64,000 nucleotides of DNA, from the IMG/VR virus record IMGVR_UViG_3300025450_000015, positions 1-64,000 of that record, one strand, 5' to 3'. Within the stretch, counting starts at the first letter, position 1. Every line of letters starts with the position of its first letter. The translations under genes and the position numbers were made by a program. The notes beneath the pieces are model-generated. The model searched no databases, was not told the origin of the DNA, and worked only from the letters and a program-made list of their open reading frames with translations. Positions 5,832 to 58,010 of the stretch are shown in pieces. The stretch is from a virus.

Positions 5832-6920
5832 ATGGCAGAAATCGTCAGTCGCACAGTGGGCCCAAGCGGTGCCAAAAAATCTTTGCGTAAAGCATTTAAA
5901 AATCAGCGTCCACTGTTCCTTTGGGGTCCCCCAGGCATTGGTAAGTCTGACATTATTAAACAACTTGGCACTGAGCTAGATGCTCACGTGATCGATGTTC
6001 GTTTAAGTCTTTGGGAACCTACTGATATTAAAGGTATTCCATATTTTGATTCTAACGATGGCACAATGCGTTGGGCTCCGCCAAGTGAGTTGCCAAGCAA
6101 GACATTTGCCGCAAATCATAAACAAATTATCCTATTCTTGGATGAAATGAACTCTGCGGCACCTAGTGTACAGGCCGCGGCTTATCAACTAATTTTGAAT
6201 CGTCGTGTTGGCGCATACGAATTGCCAGACAATGTTGTAATTGTTGCGGCTGGTAACCGTGAAACTGATAAGGGTGTTACATTCCGTATGCCTGCTCCGT
6301 TGGCAAACCGGTTTGTTCACTTGGAAATGCAAGTTGATTGGGCTGACTGGTTCGACTGGGCTGTGGACAATAAGATTCACAAAGACGTAGTTGGTTATTT
6401 GACCTTTGCTAAAAAGGACTTGTACGATTTTGATCCAAAAAGCTCAAGCCGTGCATTTGCTACTCCACGTAGCTGGTCTTTTGTAAGCGAATTACTTACA
6501 GATGATGACACGGATGTGGATACACTTACCGATTTAACTTGTGGTTCAATCGGTGAAGGATTGGCTATTAAGTTTATGGCTCACCGTAAACATGCATCTA
6601 AAATGCCTAATCCAACCGAAATCTTAAATGGTAAGGTTAAAAAGATGGAATCCAAAGAAATTTCAGCTATGTACTCTTTGACTGTGTCACTGTGCTACGA
6701 ATTGAAAGATGCTTGCGATAAAAAAGCTAAAACTTGGAATGACATGACTAATAACTTCTTCGAATTTATGATGAATAATTTCGAAACAGAATTGGTTATT
6801 ATGGGTACTAAGTTGGCATTGTCGACTTACAAGTTGCCTTTGGACCCAGATGAGATCAAATGCTTTGACGATTTCCATGCCAAATACGGCAAATACATTA
6901 GCCAAGCTACTGAAAAGTAA
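5832..6920 (+). CDS. MoxR-family AAA+ ATPase
   Basis: Walker A GPPGIGKS, Walker B ILFLDEMN, AAGN sensor, PLANRF Arg finger, TPRSW. Confidence 0.9.
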   Translation: MAEIVSRTVGPSGAKKSLRKAFKNQRPLFLWGPPGIGKSDIIKQLGTELDAHVIDVRLSLWEPTDIKGIPYFDSNDGTMRWAPPSELPSKTFAANHKQIILFLDEMNSAAPSVQAAAYQLILNRRVGAYELPDNVVIVAAGNRETDKGVTFRMPAPLANRFVHLEMQVDWADWFDWAVDNKIHKDVVGYLTFAKKDLYDFDPKSSSRAFATPRSWSFVSELLTDDDTDVDTLTDLTCGSIGEGLAIKFMAHRKHASKMPNPTEILNGKVKKMESKEISAMYSLTVSLCYELKDACDKKAKTWNDMTNNFFEFMMNNFETELVIMGTKLALSTYKLPLDPDEIKCFDDFHAKYGKYISQATEK

Positions 6921-52133: not shown

Positions 52134-53123
52134 TTAAATGTATCCCGGAGTTGTGTTTAGATATCCGCCTTCAACAAATCTGTCAAGGCTAAATCTTTGA
52201 CTTGTATTTCTTGCATACATTGGCTGTAGTGTAACTGTAAATGTACTTTTTACAGGAACATGAGTATATCCTCCTGGGATAGACCCGCCAGTTCCAAATA
52301 ATCCTGCAAGGGCGGCCACTTGTCCAACACCGCCTGCAATACTTCCTATTCCGGCAGTAACATCTCCCGCTCCTGGAAAGATTGAACCAAGTGCATCTGT
52401 TATTCCACCGACTGCATCTGCGGCACCTTGTGCTATACTAGCGGCACTGTTGACTACTGGTACACTGATATAATCACAATCTTTTGCCAACTGAGTTTGA
52501 AATGATGTAACTGCAACTGGTACATTGTTAAACACATACTGACCATACGCATTAAAATTTACAATCGGTGGAGGATTGCCAGCCTTTGGATCATTTCCGT
52601 TAAACATTTTGGTAAGACTTCTTAAATAATGCATGGCTGCAATCCAGTACAAGCCTTGTGTTTGATCCTCAACATACATTGGAGCAGTAATCTGAATTTG
52701 TCCAGGATCACTATTTTGATATGCATGGAAATTGTAATTTGTATGCGGAATATTCAAAGGTGTGTACTTTGCCTGTGCAGTTATATTAATGTCTGGAGTG
52801 TAAGGAAAAATCATGCCGCCTGCATCGATTAATGGTTTCATTACTACACTGGTTCTAAAACTAGGCCAGGTAGGTATGCTTAAACGAACACGCCATTCAT
52901 GGGCGCCTTCCAAATCAGTAAAAGCGGCCGAAGCGGCGTATATATCGCCTACTGATTCACCAGCAGTTGGTAAACTTATCGAACGTACAGAACTTAATAA
53001 ATTGGCGGCATTACCCACCGCTCCTGCCAATGCAGTGATTTTACCTGCTTTATTGATAGCAGATCCAATCGAATTAGCACTTGCGCCTTGTTGTACCTGT
53101 GCTGTTGCTCCTGTTACGGCCAT
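52134..53123 (-). CDS. tail tube initiator / gp48-gp54-like protein
   Basis: FPYTPxI, GNPPPIV, YGQYVFNNVPVAVTSF, VPVKSTFTVTLQP. Confidence 0.6.
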   Translation of the reverse strand: MAVTGATAQVQQGASANSIGSAINKAGKITALAGAVGNAANLLSSVRSISLPTAGESVGDIYAASAAFTDLEGAHEWRVRLSIPTWPSFRTSVVMKPLIDAGGMIFPYTPDINITAQAKYTPLNIPHTNYNFHAYQNSDPGQIQITAPMYVEDQTQGLYWIAAMHYLRSLTKMFNGNDPKAGNPPPIVNFNAYGQYVFNNVPVAVTSFQTQLAKDCDYISVPVVNSAASIAQGAADAVGGITDALGSIFPGAGDVTAGIGSIAGGVGQVAALAGLFGTGGSIPGGYTHVPVKSTFTVTLQPMYARNTSQRFSLDRFVEGGYLNTTPGYI

Positions 53124-53153
53124 AATATTATTCCTTTTTGGTATAATATTTAG

Positions 53154-53182
53154 TTGACTTTATAAAGTGCGTAGTTTATAAT
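53154..53182 (+). promoter_or_regulatory. sigma70 promoter for gp55-gp47-gp46
   Basis: TTGACT 53154-53159, 17 nt, TATAAT 53177-53182. Confidence 0.75.
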
Positions 53183-53205
53183 TAACCATTAGAGGACTCT
53201 TAAGG

Positions 53206-54054
53206 ATGACAATACCAGCAAACCCGCCCAAAGTAAATTACTTAAACAACAAAGACATGTTGGCCGAAATACACAAATCAAAAAGTAGTTATTGTGTATT
53301 TTCCAAACCAGAATATCATCAATACGATATAATCCTGCCCAGCGTAGATAAAATTAATATTAGAACTATTGCAGAAGCCAAACGTAATCGTGCCAAACGT
53401 ATTGGAGACACCGATTATGCCGCTCGTAAAAAGGGCGGAGAAAAAATTAAACAAGCCGACTGCGAAATTGATTATAAAAAAATTCCAAAGACAGATGTAG
53501 TCTTCAGGATCATGACATTTGATCATATTCCACTTAACAATACACGTAAGAAAAATCCAAAGAGTCTTGCAGATCACCGTGATAAGGTTAATTTTCCTCC
53601 TTTCCAACATTGGAAATTTAATGACGAAGATGAACTCATATGTGTTGGTAAAAGTCATTGGAAAGGTGGATTGAAGACTGGTCATTTTGACAAAAATGCG
53701 GGCCAAATAACTAACACCTTAGCTCGTATGATGTTAAAATTATGTGAGCGTTATGCTACTCGGGGTAACGTTCGTGGGTACACATATAATGACGAAATGA
53801 AAGGTCAGGCTATTTTGCAACTTACACAGATAGGACTACAATTTGATGAATCGAAATCAGACAATCCTTTTGCGTATTTTACTGCGGCTGTTACTAATAG
53901 CTTTGTTCGTGTTATTAATATAGAAAAACGCAATCAAAATATCCGTGACGACATACTGGAAATCAACGGAATGAATCCTAGTTATAGCCGTACTGGCGCA
54001 GGTGAACATGCAAACGCATTAAAACGACACAACGAGGATACTGCTAGTGAGTAA
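53206..54054 (+). CDS. gp55: late transcription sigma factor, T4 gp55-like
   Basis: YLNNKDML N-terminus; RGYTYNDEM..FDESKSDNPFAYFT..NSFVRVINIEK; adjacent to gp47/gp46. Confidence 0.85.
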   Translation: MTIPANPPKVNYLNNKDMLAEIHKSKSSYCVFSKPEYHQYDIILPSVDKINIRTIAEAKRNRAKRIGDTDYAARKKGGEKIKQADCEIDYKKIPKTDVVFRIMTFDHIPLNNTRKKNPKSLADHRDKVNFPPFQHWKFNDEDELICVGKSHWKGGLKTGHFDKNAGQITNTLARMMLKLCERYATRGNVRGYTYNDEMKGQAILQLTQIGLQFDESKSDNPFAYFTAAVTNSFVRVINIEKRNQNIRDDILEINGMNPSYSRTGAGEHANALKRHNEDTASE

Positions 54055-55060
54055 TATGTTTAAAAAGATTGCCGCTTTTACTGACATACATTTTGGTCTT
54101 AAAAGTAATTCATCAATTCACAATCAAGATTGTGAGGAATTTGTGGATTGGTATATCGCTAAAGCAAAGGAGGAAGGTTGTGATACAGGTATCTTTATGG
54201 GTGATTGGCACCATAACCGTAATAGCCTTAACATTACTACAATGGATTATAGCCTTAGGGCCTTGGAAAAGTTGGGTCAGGCGTTTAACAACTTCTATTT
54301 CTTTCCTGGTAATCATGATTTGTATTACAAAGACAAACGAGACATACACTCTGTGGAATTTGGAAAATACATTCCTGGTGTTACTGTCATACACGAGCCT
54401 ACTACTATTGGAGATGTCACCCTTTATCCGTGGTTGGTGGGAGAAGAATGGAAAAACATAAACAAACGTACAGGCAAATATTGCTTTGGACATTTTGAAC
54501 TTCCTAAATTTTTTATGAATGCCATGGTGCAAATGCCGGATCACGGAGAACTACAAGTTGACGCATTTAAAGGTTTTGAATTAGGGTTTAGTGGACATTT
54601 CCACAAACGTCAACAAAATGAAAACATGGTTTATATTGGCAATGCGTTCCCGCACAACTATTCGGATGCATGGGATGATGAACGTGGTATGATGATATTG
54701 GAGTGGGGTGGACAACCTGTATATCATAGCTGGCCTGGACAACCTACATATCGAACTCTTAAATTAAGTGAACTGATTGATCGTGCCGATGAAATTATTC
54801 TGCCTAGACAACATCTTCGTGTTGCATTAGACATTGATATTAGTTTTGAAGAAGCAAGTTTTATCAAAGAAAAATTCATTGCAGACTACAATATCAGAGA
54901 ACTTACATTGATAGCTGAAAAGAAAGAAATCGAAATTAACACTAATATAGATATTCAAAGTTTTGAAAGTGTTGATCAAATTGTCAGTAATCAAATTGTC
55001 AGCATTGATTCAGACACCTACGACAAAAATACACTACTATCGATTTACAGTAACCTATGA
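54047..55060 (+). CDS. gp47: recombination endonuclease subunit (Mre11/SbcD-like)
   Basis: TDIHFG, GDWHH, GNHD, GHFE, SGHFH phosphoesterase motifs. Confidence 0.92.
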   Translation: MSNMFKKIAAFTDIHFGLKSNSSIHNQDCEEFVDWYIAKAKEEGCDTGIFMGDWHHNRNSLNITTMDYSLRALEKLGQAFNNFYFFPGNHDLYYKDKRDIHSVEFGKYIPGVTVIHEPTTIGDVTLYPWLVGEEWKNINKRTGKYCFGHFELPKFFMNAMVQMPDHGELQVDAFKGFELGFSGHFHKRQQNENMVYIGNAFPHNYSDAWDDERGMMILEWGGQPVYHSWPGQPTYRTLKLSELIDRADEIILPRQHLRVALDIDISFEEASFIKEKFIADYNIRELTLIAEKKEIEINTNIDIQSFESVDQIVSNQIVSIDSDTYDKNTLLSIYSNL

Positions 55061-56835
55061 TTATAATAAAAGAACTAACAGTACGTAACTTCATGAGTGT
55101 GGGCAACCAGACTCAAGCTGTAGACTTTGGTAAAGAAAATTTAACACTCGTATTAGGTGAGAATTTAGATCAAGGCGGTGATGATAGCGGAAGTCGTAAC
55201 GGTACAGGTAAGACAACCATTGTAAATGCTTTAAGTTATGCACTTTACGGTATTGCACTCACTAACATTAAAAAAGATAATCTTATCAATAAGATTAACG
55301 CCAAAGGTATGTTGGTTACACTTACATTTGAAAAAAATGGTGTTCTCTATCGTATAGAACGTGGGCGTAAACCTAACATATTAAAGTTTTTTATTGATGA
55401 CCAAGAGCAAGAAACAGACGAAACAGACGATGCTCAAGGAGATATGCGTGAAACCCAGAAGGACTTAGATGACTTGCTGGGCATGAGCCACGATATGTTC
55501 AAACATATTGTTGCTCTTAACACTTATACAGAACCTTTCTTAAGTATGCGGGCTAACGACCAACGTGCTATCATTGAACAGTTGTTGGGTATTACATTAC
55601 TAAGTGAAAAAGCAGAAACTCTTAAAGAACAAGTTAAAGAAACTAAAGATGCTATTACACAAGAGACTGCCAATCTCGAAGCTACAAAGAAAAGCAACGA
55701 AAAAATACAATTAAGTATTGATAGTTTGCTAACCAAACAAATGGCTTGGGGTAATCAACATACTCAAGAGCTAGAAAAGATGGGCAGAGCCATTGTCGAA
55801 TTGGAGGACGTAGATATTGACGCTGAGCTTGCGAAGCATGCGGAGCTCAAAGTGTATGACGAGAAGTCAGCGAAGCTGAAAAGCCTAAATAAAGAGCGTG
55901 CAACGCTCGAAAGTGCGATAGCACAAGCGGAGCGAAGCGTCACGAAGTACGACGGCGAGCTCGTCAAGTTGGCTAACAAGACCTGTCACGCATGTGAACA
56001 AGAGCTACATGATCACAAGCATGAAGAAATGACATCAACAGCACAAGGGCACCTTGACGAGGCCCGAAAGTATTTCGACAAGGTCACTAAGGATTTGTCA
56101 AAAATACAAGCCGAAATTGCTACCCTGGGTGAGCTGACTCAACGTCCTTCAACGTACTATGACAGCGTGGAGCAGACTCTTAAACATCAAAACAACTTAA
56201 AAACTCTTGAAACACAGTTGACTATCAAAGCGGGTGAAACTGATCCGTATCAAGAGCAAATTGAAGAACTGCGTATGACTGCCATGCAGGAAATTTCTTG
56301 GGACTTGGTCAATGAGCTGACTCGCTTGAAGGATCATCAAGAGTTCTTGTTGAAATTGCTGACATCAAAAGATTCATTTATTCGCAAAAAGATTATAGAT
56401 CAAAACCTAGCATACTTAAACAATCGCTTGACCTATTACTTGGACAAGCTGGGGTTACCACACACAGTTACATTCCAAAACGACTTGACGGTCTTAATCA
56501 CACAGCTGGGGCAAGATTTAGATTTTGATAATCTAAGTCGAGGCGAACGCAATAGACTCATACTGGGCTTGTCGTGGGCTTTCCGTGATGTATGGGAAAG
56601 TCTATATCAAAGTATTAATTTGCTGTTTGTTGACGAGCTCATAGACAACGGACTAGATCCTTCAGGAGTAGAAGGTGCCCTGGGCATACTGAAAAAGATG
56701 GGTCGTGAACGCAAGAAAAACATATTCTTGATCAGTCACAAGGAAGAGCTGATAGGCCGTGTAAACAATGTACTGAGAGTTATCAAAGAAAACGGTTTTA
56801 CCAGCTATGCAAACGATTTAGAGATACATGAGTAG
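55057..56835 (+). CDS. gp46: recombination ATPase subunit (Rad50/SbcC-like)
   Basis: NFMSVG, NGTGKT Walker A, coiled coil with CHAC Zn hook, LSRGE signature, LLFVDE, ISH. Confidence 0.93.
   Translation: MIIIKELTVRNFMSVGNQTQAVDFGKENLTLVLGENLDQGGDDSGSRNGTGKTTIVNALSYALYGIALTNIKKDNLINKINAKGMLVTLTFEKNGVLYRIERGRKPNILKFFIDDQEQETDETDDAQGDMRETQKDLDDLLGMSHDMFKHIVALNTYTEPFLSMRANDQRAIIEQLLGITLLSEKAETLKEQVKETKDAITQETANLEATKKSNEKIQLSIDSLLTKQMAWGNQHTQELEKMGRAIVELEDVDIDAELAKHAELKVYDEKSAKLKSLNKERATLESAIAQAERSVTKYDGELVKLANKTCHACEQELHDHKHEEMTSTAQGHLDEARKYFDKVTKDLSKIQAEIATLGELTQRPSTYYDSVEQTLKHQNNLKTLETQLTIKAGETDPYQEQIEELRMTAMQEISWDLVNELTRLKDHQEFLLKLLTSKDSFIRKKIIDQNLAYLNNRLTYYLDKLGLPHTVTFQNDLTVLITQLGQDLDFDNLSRGERNRLILGLSWAFRDVWESLYQSINLLFVDELIDNGLDPSGVEGALGILKKMGRERKKNIFLISHKEELIGRVNNVLRVIKENGFTSYANDLEIHE
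55824..56099 (+). repeat. cluster of short GNA/GNNA-loop DNA hairpins inside gp46
   Basis: GCGAAGC at 55831, 55870, 55932; GAGCGT-GCA-ACGCTC 55894; GTGC-GATA-GCAC 55913; CAAGG-GCA-CCTTG 56044; CGAAA-GTA-TTTCG 56065. Confidence 0.7.
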
Positions 56836-57109: not shown

Positions 57110-57553
57110 ATGTCTTGGACTTATCAATCTCAACCAATAGAAACACTACCAGAAGACTGTATAGGATTTGTTTATATCATAACAAACACTACTAACGGTC
57201 GCATGTACATAGGCAAAAAACTAGCTAAATTCTCAAAAACCACATACAAGACAGTAAAATTAAAGAACGGCAACAAGAAAAAAAAGAAAATTCGTAGCAA
57301 AATTGACTCAGACTGGCGGGAATATTATGGTTCAAGCCCAGAATTAAGCAAGGATGTTACGGCATTAGGCACAGAAAATTTTACAAGAGAGATACTGTTT
57401 CTCTGTCGAAGCAAGGCAGAATGCAGTTATATAGAGGCTAGAGAACAATTTTCACGCAGAGTTTTAGAATCAAATGACTATTATAATGGTCATATTCAAG
57501 TGCGTGTACATGGTTCGCATATTCGCAAACTTCAAGAAAACCAGGCAAAATAA
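57110..57553 (+). CDS. stand-alone GIY-YIG family endonuclease (Seg-like catalytic domain)
   Basis: GFVYIITN..MYIGKK, YYGSS, NFTREIL, YIEAREQ (Glu), YYNG (Asn); Lys-rich insertion. Confidence 0.8.
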   Translation: MSWTYQSQPIETLPEDCIGFVYIITNTTNGRMYIGKKLAKFSKTTYKTVKLKNGNKKKKKIRSKIDSDWREYYGSSPELSKDVTALGTENFTREILFLCRSKAECSYIEAREQFSRRVLESNDYYNGHIQVRVHGSHIRKLQENQAK

Positions 57554-57563
57554 CGCCAAATAA

Positions 57564-58010
57564 GCCCGCACAGGCGATAGTATTGTGCCCTGAATCCGCT
57601 CTGATGTGTGGCGGCAAGGAATCTCTGCTTGGCGCAGAGTAGCTGGATCACTATCCTTTACAGGACGCGGATGGGATATGCCTATGAATAAACCCGTTTG
57701 ATCAGCAAGAAAATATATTTTACAGGCTAAAAGAGAGGAGAGAAACCTCGGGTTTAATAAACGTTTTACGTTGTTTATTAGACTGCCGTCATATAAAGAC
57801 TTGGCTCGTGGTACCGGATGACCGCCACTGTAATGCCAAAACGTAAGAGTGAGCATGTTCGACTCGGATAATGTTTGTCATTTTGCCCGCCAGGGCAAAG
57901 TGTGACTGAACGATCTGGATAATATCTTAAACGCTTCGCGTTATAAGTGTTGTTAACTAATCCTTAATAGTTCGAGCGAAAGCGAAGAATAGAAGAACGC
58001 AAGTTCTTCT
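57564..58010 (+). ncRNA. candidate large structured non-coding RNA (unassigned class)
   Basis: only long non-coding gap in the window; more than 12 helices found by eye, many with G-U pairs that work only on the + strand; 9-bp loop-to-downstream pairing; terminal GCAA hairpin. Confidence 0.65.

Follow-up and report, generated by a model that had tools for sequence, protein, structure and literature searches.

A 29-nucleotide chain of mini-hairpin motifs conserved within the gp46 coding sequence of uncultured T4-like phages

Introduction

Can a stretch of protein-coding DNA in a large phage also carry a signal that is read as folded single-stranded DNA? This question is raised by a viral DNA of 64,000 nucleotides (the window; positions 1 to 64,000 of IMG/VR record IMGVR_UViG_3300025450_000015, whose whole genome is 153.7 kb), in which about 280 nt of coding sequence at 55824-56099 hold a dense array of short hairpins, many with GNA triloops. 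The original prediction was that the array is a second, ssDNA-level code laid over the protein code. DNA mini-hairpins of the forms d(GCGAAGC), GCGNAGC and GCGNNAGC were described by Hirao and co-workers (reviewed in PMC13037366), and their known contexts include the G4, St-1, alpha3 and RSF1010 ssiA origins and the N4 promoters (PMC13037366).

The array lies in an ORF of 592 aa on the + strand (55057-56835) that matches Pfam AAA_23 (E 3e-16) and SMC_N. Using tblastn with this protein, the best matches were annotated as a recombination endonuclease subunit or as SbcC-like, and we refer to the gene as gp46, a Rad50/SbcC-like recombination nuclease subunit. Its start overlaps the stop of a gp47/Mre11-like ORF (54047-55060). 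The phage is a T4-like dsDNA phage whose genome encodes a T4-type late sigma factor, gp55. A megablast search of isolate phages gave no match, and the gp46 proteins of the closest isolate phages share only 50% amino-acid identity. For comparison we used eighty relatives from IMG/VR, a clade of about 25 and 55 others.

Results

The reported hairpins are present in a region of extreme codon usage

Upon re-checking the sequence we found all of the listed hairpins in 55824-56099 at their reported coordinates, among them TGC-GAA-GCA (55830-38), GTGC-GATA-GCAC (55913-24) and GC-GAA-GC (55932-38) on the + strand. The three copies of GCGAAGC were also confirmed, beginning at 55831, 55870 and 55932. 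Over all 153.7 kb of the genome there are seven copies of this motif on the + strand and two on the - strand, where about 3.5 per strand are expected from base composition. The excess is therefore local and not genome-wide.

The reported shift toward GCG, AAG and GAG codons proved both real and extreme. GC at third codon positions (GC3) is 0.559 in the region, the 99.95th percentile of 3923 coding windows (genome mean 0.231, sd 0.072), and GCG provides 5 of the 12 Ala codons (7% in the genome), AAG 10 of the 13 Lys codons (22%) and GAG 8 of the 12 Glu codons (17%). At 50% GC (genome 37.7%), the region has the highest GC content among coding stretches of its size class.

We then compared the hairpin content with synonymous-codon permutations. 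Four GNA triloops with a stem of 5 bp or longer are present against a mean of 0.44 (0 of 5000 shuffles), and the region ranks first among genome windows for GNA triloops. Hairpins with any loop number 12 against 5.6 expected (P=0.008), a z of about 2.9 that is ordinary among 898 coding windows, the top values being 3.4-4.2. The folding energy of the region does not differ significantly from synonymous shuffles for the window (z about -1); some relatives reach z of -3 to -5, through different lineage-specific stems.

Synonymous constraint is confined to a 29-nt core

In the 25-sequence clade, synonymous diversity falls to 0.40 of expectation (observed/expected) at 55906-55945, which is the lowest value in the gene and the only dip. 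No such dip was found at this position in the non-clade relatives. Parsimony counts of third-position changes likewise reach the gene minimum here, with 13 changes over nine codons versus 57.9 +/- 12.4 in other windows. Thus the synonymous constraint predicted for the whole region is found at 55912-55940 on the + strand, a 29-nt core, but not in the rest of the region, where divergence is normal.

The core is a chain of GC dinucleotides spaced by G-N(N)-A loops, so that it is built of overlapping GCGNNAGC and GCGNAGC mini-hairpin motifs. The clade consensus is GC-GAYA-GC-GCAA-GC-GGA-GC-GAA-GC. In the window, matches to the motifs occur at 55915 (GCGATAGC), 55927 (GCGGAGC) and 55932 (GCGAAGC). 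The consensus adds a fourth, GCGCAAGC at 55921; because GCA replaces GCG at 55921-23, the window holds three of the four. Two items of the array as first listed fall inside the core, GTGC-GATA-GCAC and the third GCGAAGC. The former, hairpin 1 (55913..55924, + strand), has a 4-bp stem of G-Y-G-C with G-C-R-C and a G-A-Y-A loop, includes the GCGNNAGC motif at 55915-22, and is the predicted centroid structure both in the window and in L011. The latter belongs to a pair of overlapping GCGNAGC motifs, GC-GGA-GC and GC-GAA-GC (55927..55938, + strand), which cannot form together because the middle GC is common to both. Nearest-neighbour folding of the core gives -4 to -5 kcal/mol, no better than shuffles (z about 0); nearest-neighbour parameters miss the stability of mini-hairpins (review PMC13037366). 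We found no copy of the region or of the core elsewhere in the genome; the element is single-copy.

To follow the core more widely we searched with its central 20-mer, taken from the relatives' consensus, from which the window differs by one base. The consensus 20-mer was exact in at least 120 IMG/VR contigs (92 distinct). The flanks in these contigs are only about 72% (71-74%) identical, with scrambled third positions. Three upstream codons that lay outside the search pattern are invariant at position 3 as well, and the third positions of flanking codons on both sides of the core vary freely.

The allowed variation follows the mini-hairpin motif

Changes to the stems or to the sheared G-A pair are nearly absent: such variants were found in 0, 1 and 2 contigs only. 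For the two overlapping GCGNAGC motifs, a change of the stem G (GAG to GAA) was found in no contig and a change of the stem C (AGC to AGT) in one. The loop N of GC-GAA-GC is A in most contigs, T in 11 and G in 3, and the contigs with T come from several divergent lineages that are mutually 64-89% identical, three near-identical pairs aside. In the first loop the N positions are AT, AC, TT, GT or CA; the amino acid encoded there varies (ATA, ACA, TTA, GTA, CAA) and the last base of the codon is always A. This pattern fits GCGN(N)AGC, which indicates that the constraint falls on the mini-hairpin motifs.

At one stem pair of hairpin 1, 55914:55923, most sequences have C:G, and T:A is found in the window lineage (100%) and in relatives 91% and 76% identical to the window. 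A targeted pattern scan of variants with T at 55914 gave seven T:A and no T.G. In a wider set, six sequences were unpaired at this position versus three distinct T:A; one of the six was T.G, and two of the six (L003 and L006) come from lineages in which most of the core is missing.

These data bear on whether the core is instead a sequence-specific site in duplex DNA, read as letters by a regulator, a terminase or initiator, or a site-specific nickase, with its mini-hairpin look arising incidentally from an AGCG repeat. AGCG does recur five times with a spacing of 5-6 nt, and all nine core third positions are conserved, including that of the CAA codon (25 of 25, never CAG), with the loop N mostly A. 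Some base-specific reading of the core is possible given this preference for A in the GAA loop and the absence of CAG. Packaging (pac) sites, moreover, are typically conserved single sites of 22-29 bp inside genes. We nevertheless consider a duplex site unlikely, since the positions that do vary are exactly the loop N positions and the 55914:55923 pair changes in a compensated way. In addition, nick sites are found in several copies and the core in a single one. Some phage nick sites do contain GCGC, the T5 consensus being cited in PMC3517423 as R/GCGCRGG, to which the core has no match.

A constraint on the gp46 mRNA, in which a small stem-loop with a GGAG segment would serve processing, stability or ribosome pausing near the hook, accounts for the same codons in another way, and we judge it decidedly unlikely. 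The mRNA carries the same strand as the core, the 4-bp G/C stem of hairpin 1 would form in RNA too, GGAG is present at 55929-32, and the single T.G combination at 55914:55923 would be U.G in RNA. On the other hand, four of the five loop-1 variants (GAUA, GACA, GUUA and GGUA) are not GNRA, and all of the variants fit the GCGNNAGC definition of PMC13037366. Third positions are most invariant in the last two units, whose 2-bp stems would pair only weakly in RNA. RNAalifold gave no consensus fold (-10.9 kcal/mol over 279 nt). There was no Rfam match in gp46, and no trans-pairing partner for the core stood out in the genome, nearby non-coding RNA included.

The core sits in a clade-specific GC-rich island

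Surrounding the core is a GC-rich island of about 160 nt (55825..55985, approximate bounds, + strand) in the ascending arm of the coiled coil, immediately 5' of the Zn hook. It is common to the clade of about 25 relatives, where its GC3 is 0.53-0.63, and absent in the 55 others (0.17-0.29). GC at codon positions 1 and 2 is raised too. Its third positions are saturated, as elsewhere (about 7.6 changes per site), and W>S changes roughly equal S>W changes. The parsimony test for amelioration is biased in the AT-rich flanks, and shows only that there is no excess of S>W inside the island.

An island of this kind could be a recently recombined mosaic from a GC-richer relative, in which nothing is selected and the hairpins, core included, are chance. 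Some relatives do have higher GC3 gene-wide (L004, 0.52), and the window is nearest L001, L002 and L004 here, with synonymous differences of 15-33% versus 40-60% in the flanks. Haplotype blocks can be seen immediately 3' of the core, and the any-loop hairpin density is ordinary genome-wide. A mosaic is nonetheless improbable. Because the island is saturated without an S>W excess, its GC level appears to be held rather than decaying; conservation falls sharply at both edges of the core, where conversion tracts would fade; and the core is found in at least 92 different flank contexts.

Hairpins outside the core show little structural conservation

The remaining hairpins of the array behave differently across relatives from those of the core. 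TCAGC-GAA-GCTGA (55867..55879, + strand), in Ser-Ala-Lys-Leu codons, is partly conserved: 12 of 25 clade members retain at least four of its five pairs, with the loop G varying as G, A or C. It is uninformative on pairing because the amino acids fix its partners. Only the window's own sequence has the 6-bp form of GAGCGT-GCA-ACGCTC (55894..55908, + strand); of 112 sequences, 23 have the closing T:A pair, and an apparent G:C to A:T switch at 55896/55906 is not above background linkage (mutual information rank 297 of 849). On the - strand this hairpin resembles a terminator, a match within chance expectation. Outside the GC island, CAAGG-GCA-CCTTG (56044-56) and CGAAA-GTA-TTTCG (56065-77), together spanning 56044..56077 on the + strand, are lineage-specific. 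They are intact only in the window, in the identical contig L009 and in two or three further relatives each (L001, L005; L014), and synonymous diversity there is 1.2-1.3 times expectation.

The palindrome TCAC-GCAT-GTGA (55986-97) lies at the Zn hook, whose codons Cys-His-Ala-Cys-Glu (55984..55997, + strand; CxxC at 55984-55995) encode an invariant protein motif. The hook amino acids force this palindrome; its helix is 95% paired across relatives, with one-sided changes only. Over eight of the listed helices in 25 relatives, pairing was 70.9% versus 69.2% for shuffled columns, showing no covariation signal.

Within the clade, 87 of the 115 mini-hairpin motif instances sit in the core, and the other 28 do not exceed what synonymous shuffles give (33.9 over the whole region). 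The GNA triloops exceed codon shuffles as originally predicted, but motif counts outside the core match codon usage. The best explanation for the non-core hairpins and GCGAAGC copies is that they are by-products of the island's G-ending codons, plus chance, because GCG, AAG, GAG and CTC/CTG codons are used in an Ala/Lys/Glu/Leu-rich coiled coil. For hairpin scans the lesson is that the shortest motifs of this array were conserved, and that its conspicuous long hairpins were not informative.

It is therefore very improbable that the whole field of about eleven hairpins at 55824-56099 is one ssDNA device (an origin, primosome site or packaging signal): GNA triloops exceed synonymous shuffles, and short hairpins summed over the clade number 203 against 118 expected (245 versus 222 outside it), but common descent of many stems keeps this clade excess from being independent evidence, the 56044, 56065 and 6-bp 55894 hairpins are not conserved, synonymous diversity outside the core is normal or higher, covariation is not above background and the folding z is about -1.

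Several other sources of constraint or of the island were considered and rejected. For an overlapping ORF in the sense direction, every clade member has stops in frames +1 and +2, and the single open antisense frame shares the third positions of gp46 and is equally open in non-clade relatives. A mobile nuclease with co-conversion was likewise rejected; because the downstream GIY-YIG gene and non-coding region keep the same place in clade and non-clade genomes, they are not mobile and are uncorrelated with the core. Cumulative skew, a check proposed with the original prediction, does not indicate the region as an origin: the GC and AT minima (53.6 and 53.2 kb) coincide with a gene-orientation switch at 53.15 kb.

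Comparison with known hairpin and origin systems

We compared the core with systems in which mini-hairpins or cis-acting elements have known roles. Like published mini-hairpin DNA, the core exactly matches both consensus forms (GC, G-N(1-2)-A, GC), with the positions for two G-C pairs and a sheared G-A pair conserved and the N positions varying. Unlike it, the core's motifs, up to four, overlap through shared GC dinucleotides and are thus alternative registers, and their setting is a gene for a protein in a large dsDNA phage.

The primase-dependent complementary-strand origins of small phages carry the motif at their priming sites, as GCGAAAGC in G4 and as GCGTTAGC in both St-1 and alpha3, and in RSF1010 the ssiA signal has the mini-hairpin motif CCGAAGG at its priming site (PMC13037366). 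Two relatives have GCGTTAGC itself as the first unit of the core. The known sites, however, act on ssDNA genomes or plasmid strands, with longer hairpins and a defined primase. In the present phages hairpin 1 has a conserved 4-bp stem, and a 6-bp stem just after the core, AGCGTA/TACGCT, is present in the majority haplotype and is not in the window; no conserved long hairpin was found. We take the likeness to priming of the G4/ssi type as a functional analogy only.

At T4 oriF (uvsY) and oriG (34), an R-loop makes the non-template strand accessible to the gp41/61 primosome (PMC3016281). Transcriptional divergence and skew shifts are found close to active T4 origins; no motif is common to origins of this type, which depend on a middle promoter and an AT-rich unwinding element (PMC3016281). 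The core resembles these cis elements in lying within coding DNA and on the non-template strand, 2.8 kb from the point of divergence and skew shift. In contrast to them its region is GC-rich, with no AT-rich unwinding element. The promoter search covered sigma-70-like and late types: no sigma-70-like promoter was found in 55300-56500 and no late promoter (TATAAATA) near the region.

Promoters of the N4 virion RNA polymerase are ssDNA hairpins with 3-nt loops and are listed among mini-hairpin contexts (PMC13037366). The conserved stems of the core are 2-4 bp long, and the triloop hairpins of 5-6 bp in the array are not conserved. N4 promoters have stems of 5-7 bp and require the virion RNA polymerase. 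A non-exhaustive search of the genome found no polymerase-like giant ORF for such an enzyme; the largest ORF (1802 aa) is a virion structural protein.

Discussion

Our data suggest that the array is a composite whose sole selected part is the 29-nt core at 55912-55940, a chain of DNA-type mini-hairpins; taken as a whole, we regard this reading as evenly balanced between right and wrong. Its parts differ in strength. The core is very probably a functional nucleic-acid element. If so, it is somewhat probable that single-stranded DNA structure is the selected feature, and, given that structure, a role in replication, priming or recombination has about an even chance. From the comparative sequence data, a nucleic-acid signal seems to be overlaid on the gp46 protein code, and we infer that selection acts at the level of DNA rather than RNA and that the function is in cis. 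The second code originally proposed is thus retained as constraint on mini-hairpin motifs within the core and given up for the 280-nt array: the hairpins conserved in related gp46 genes are those of the core, and outside it the earlier reading is largely refuted.

We propose that the core acts on the coding, non-template strand and that selection may preserve a structure, not an exact sequence. Once transcription, replication or end resection has opened the duplex, the + strand could form a 4-bp G-N-N-A hairpin together with either of two alternative G-N-A mini-hairpins. Judging from published mini-hairpins, such structures would be unusually stable and resist SSB and exonucleases. The core could then mark a cis-acting site for DNA metabolism, with primosome or helicase loading, R-loop stabilisation, or a recombination barrier or entry point as candidate roles. 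The GC-rich island may be part of the same clade-specific feature, and would raise local duplex or hybrid stability.

A more specific form of this proposal, drawn by analogy, can be offered only tentatively: that a large clade of uncultured T4-like phages carries in gp46 a strand-specific tandem mini-hairpin signal of the G4-type or ssi kind. Such a signal might be a site for replication initiation, primosome loading or R-loop stabilisation, or a hairpin substrate or barrier for the gp46/47 nuclease, and the island might have evolved to support it.

Mini-hairpin DNA is known chiefly from chemistry and from a few origins of small ssDNA phages and plasmids. Here, more than 100 divergent phage genomes vary as the motif predicts, with the stems and the G..A pair fixed and N free. 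Found inside a gene of a large dsDNA phage, this pattern is comparative evidence for selection of mini-hairpin structures in vivo. The core is also a short and precisely bounded target of nine codons, all open to synonymous recoding, and it could help to test how T4-like phages mark sites of DNA metabolism, given that the T4 literature reports no motif common to its origins.

The predicted hairpins are present but are not conserved as a unit

The genome whose first 64 kb make up the window is that of a 153.7-kb phage with 37.7% GC. Its Rad50/SbcC-like gp46 gene (55057-56835, + strand; Pfam AAA_23 and SMC_N) follows the genes for the late sigma factor gp55 (53206-54054) and a gp47/Mre11-like phosphoesterase (54047-55060), and gp47 and gp46 are among the most GC3-rich genes of the genome (0.37-0.45 versus 0.23). 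The predicted hairpin array (55824-56099) encodes the coiled coil flanking the CxxC zinc hook on either side (Cys-His-Ala-Cys, 55984-55995). We found no close relative among isolate phages, the best gp46 matches having 50% amino-acid identity. IMG/VR contained hundreds of relatives, from which we fetched 80 (66-100% identity), and the codon alignment comprised 81 genes.

Downstream of gp46, a SegE-like GIY-YIG ORF (57110-57553, +) occupies the same position in nearly all relatives, inside the clade described below and outside it, with mostly 70-89% amino-acid identity and about 40-60% in the most distant ones. This fixed location led us to reject a mobile homing nuclease, and the ORF behaves as a core gene of this phage family. 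The non-coding region that follows (57554-58010) contains a match to the Polynucleobacter-1 RNA (RF01718, Rfam) at 57563-57708 (+; 69.5 bits versus a gathering score of 37, E 3e-14), and the non-coding region downstream of gp46 is kept (about 70-90% nucleotide identity) in most of the 80 relatives.

All of the mini-hairpins listed in the original prediction are present, as are its three GCGAAGC copies. These copies are packed into 108 nt, while the whole genome has 7 on the + strand and 2 on the - strand against an expected 3.5 or so per strand, and is thus not enriched. The reported codon shift was borne out and is the strongest anomaly: GC3 is 0.559 versus 0.231 ± 0.072 (99.95th percentile), and GCG, AAG, GAG and CTC are far over their genome shares. 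Permuting synonymous codons inside the region gave an expectation of 0.44 GNA triloops with stems of 5 bp or more, against 4 observed (0/5000 shuffles), and of 5.6 hairpins in all with 3-5 nt loops, against 12 observed (P=0.008). The shuffles yield fewer hairpins and therefore do not refute the array. However, two observations reduce the weight of this excess. The any-loop excess (z about 2.9) is nothing unusual beside 898 other stretches of coding sequence in the genome; the GNA class alone comes out on top, and that class had been defined post hoc. The 279 nt also fold with an energy no better than that of synonymous shuffles (z about -1 on the + strand, -1 to -2 on the - strand).

As one conserved unit the array fails, since its hairpins are poorly kept in related gp46 genes and synonymous diversity is mostly normal. 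Intact copies of the 56044 and 56065 hairpins occur only in the window, an identical contig and, for each hairpin, two or three further relatives. At 55894, five relatives keep five of the six pairs, and no more than 23 of 112 sequences have the closing T:A pair; the 6-bp stem of 55894-55908 is specific to the window sequence. Roughly half of the sequences in a 25-member clade keep at least four of five pairs at 55867, where the partners are fixed by amino acids, and the TCAC-GCAT-GTGA palindrome is dictated by zinc-hook residues. Pairing over eight listed helices was 70.9% versus 69.2% for column shuffles, and RNAalifold gave no consensus fold among the relatives. An apparent compensatory switch in the 55894 hairpin (GAG..CTC to GAA..TTA) did not exceed the background linkage of nearby variable sites (rank 297/849). 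On the - strand, 55908-55885 reads as this stem followed by a T-rich run with a terminator-like score; there was 1 such match versus 1.4 expected by chance.

A GC-rich island surrounds a conserved core

Over the initial 740 nt of gp46, the clade and the 55 other relatives have coinciding GC3 profiles. Between about 55825 and 55985, GC3 is 0.53-0.63 in the clade versus 0.17-0.29 in the others, and it is still 0.10-0.15 higher in the 3' half (56000-56835). The gain is chiefly in G-ending codons, as expected because Lys, Glu and Gln can only exchange A for G; codon positions 1 and 2 are GC-richer too. Island third positions show 7.6 changes per site, about as elsewhere, with W>S and S>W about equally frequent by parsimony, which is biased here. 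The island is thus not a fading import: its composition is maintained, perhaps by selection for local stability or by GC-biased repair at a hot spot.

The island surrounds a core at 55912-55940. The original prediction that synonymous sites are constrained holds here, where the clade profile has its one sharp dip (0.40-0.49 of expectation at 55906-55945), but not over most of the array (0.9-1.3). No such dip is seen here in non-clade relatives. With 22 core taxa in the tree, we counted 13 changes over the nine third positions of 55912-55938, the lowest value among 9-codon windows of the gene, which average 57.9 ± 12.4. Overlapping genes do not explain this constraint. We read island and core as what is probably one clade-specific feature.

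The clade consensus, AGC GCG AYA GCG CAA GCG GAG CGA AGC GT, has five GC dinucleotides, with GAYA, GCAA, GGA and GAA between successive ones, and matches the mini-hairpin DNA consensus of Kimoto and Hirao, GCGNNAGC/GCGNAGC (PMC13037366), at four overlapping places; the window has three of the four because of GCA at 55921-23. A pattern scan found the consensus 20-mer in at least 120 IMG/VR contigs. Among the matches listed there were 92 distinct sequences with flanks just 71-74% identical; the three unselected codons immediately 5' of the search pattern had position 3 conserved at 97-100%, and third positions either side of the core (55911 and 55941) varied freely. Motif instances in the clade region numbered 115 versus 33.9 expected from synonymous shuffles. 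The core held 87; the other 28 were not in excess, and thus the window copies at 55831, 55840 and 55870 are as local codon usage predicts.

Adjoining the core on its 3' side and overlapping its last unit, the majority haplotype (Ser-Val-Lys-Lys-Tyr-Ala; alignment columns 115-132, window 55936-55953) has a 6-bp stem AGCGTA/TACGCT with a 6-nt A-rich loop, which the window haplotype (Val-Thr-Lys-Tyr-Asp) does not have. The strongest linkage signals of the region come from these two haplotypes. Elsewhere in the genome, a mini-hairpin chain of two units (GC-GAA-GC-GTA-GC) occurs just once, outside the window at genome positions 151513-151527 (6377-6391 of the sequence L224), within the perfect 6-bp hairpin CTACGC-GAA-GCGTAG. 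Another GCGAAGC lies 36 nt upstream, and the hairpin is in GC-rich intergenic DNA flanked by divergent genes for a 2OG-Fe(II) oxygenase (-) and DUF6321 (+).

Core variation suggests a DNA structure

Whether a structure or a word is conserved was addressed by targeted scans for core variants. The pair 55914:55923, in the stem of the first hairpin (55913-55924), is C:G in the majority. Seven contigs have T at 55914 and all seven have A at 55923, in lineages 100%, 91% and 76% identical to the window; these scans found C.A in two contigs and T.G in none. A wider set gave a few more unpaired sequences, one of them T.G, and two (the relatives L003 and L006) belong to lineages without most of the core. 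In the last unit (GC-GAA-GC, 55932-55938), the stem G changed (GAG to GAA) in 0 contigs and the stem C (AGC to AGT) in one, while at the loop N 11 contigs, from several divergent lineages, carry T and 3 carry G. The first-loop codon encodes Ile, Thr, Leu, Val or Gln in different sequences, yet its third base is always A, so that the G-N-N-A form is kept. Since these loops are mostly not GNRA and 2-bp stems would be weak in RNA, the variation appears to suit a DNA motif better than an RNA stem-loop. We have moderate confidence that the core is a strand-specific DNA structural signal, conserved as structure.

Possible role of the core

Published mini-hairpin contexts include the priming sites of G4, St-1 and alpha3, ssiA of RSF1010, and N4 promoters (PMC13037366). 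The core does not match the T5 nick consensus, and its geometry differs from that of N4 promoters; no virion polymerase is evident. In T4, origin R-loops expose the non-template strand to the primosome, and the active origins, which have no motif in common, are close to skew shifts and to points where transcription diverges (PMC3016281). The core, too, is carried by the non-template strand, and a divergence point at 53.15 kb is 2.8 kb away. The global cumulative skew minima (AT at 53177, GC at 53608; region 53150-53610) fall where - strand genes (52134-53123) give way to the + strand gp55-gp47-gp46 operon, and gene orientation itself explains them. Unlike for a T4 oriF-type origin, neither a sigma-70-like or late promoter nor an AT-rich element was found near the core. 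We propose with low confidence that the core may serve as a signal for DNA metabolism.
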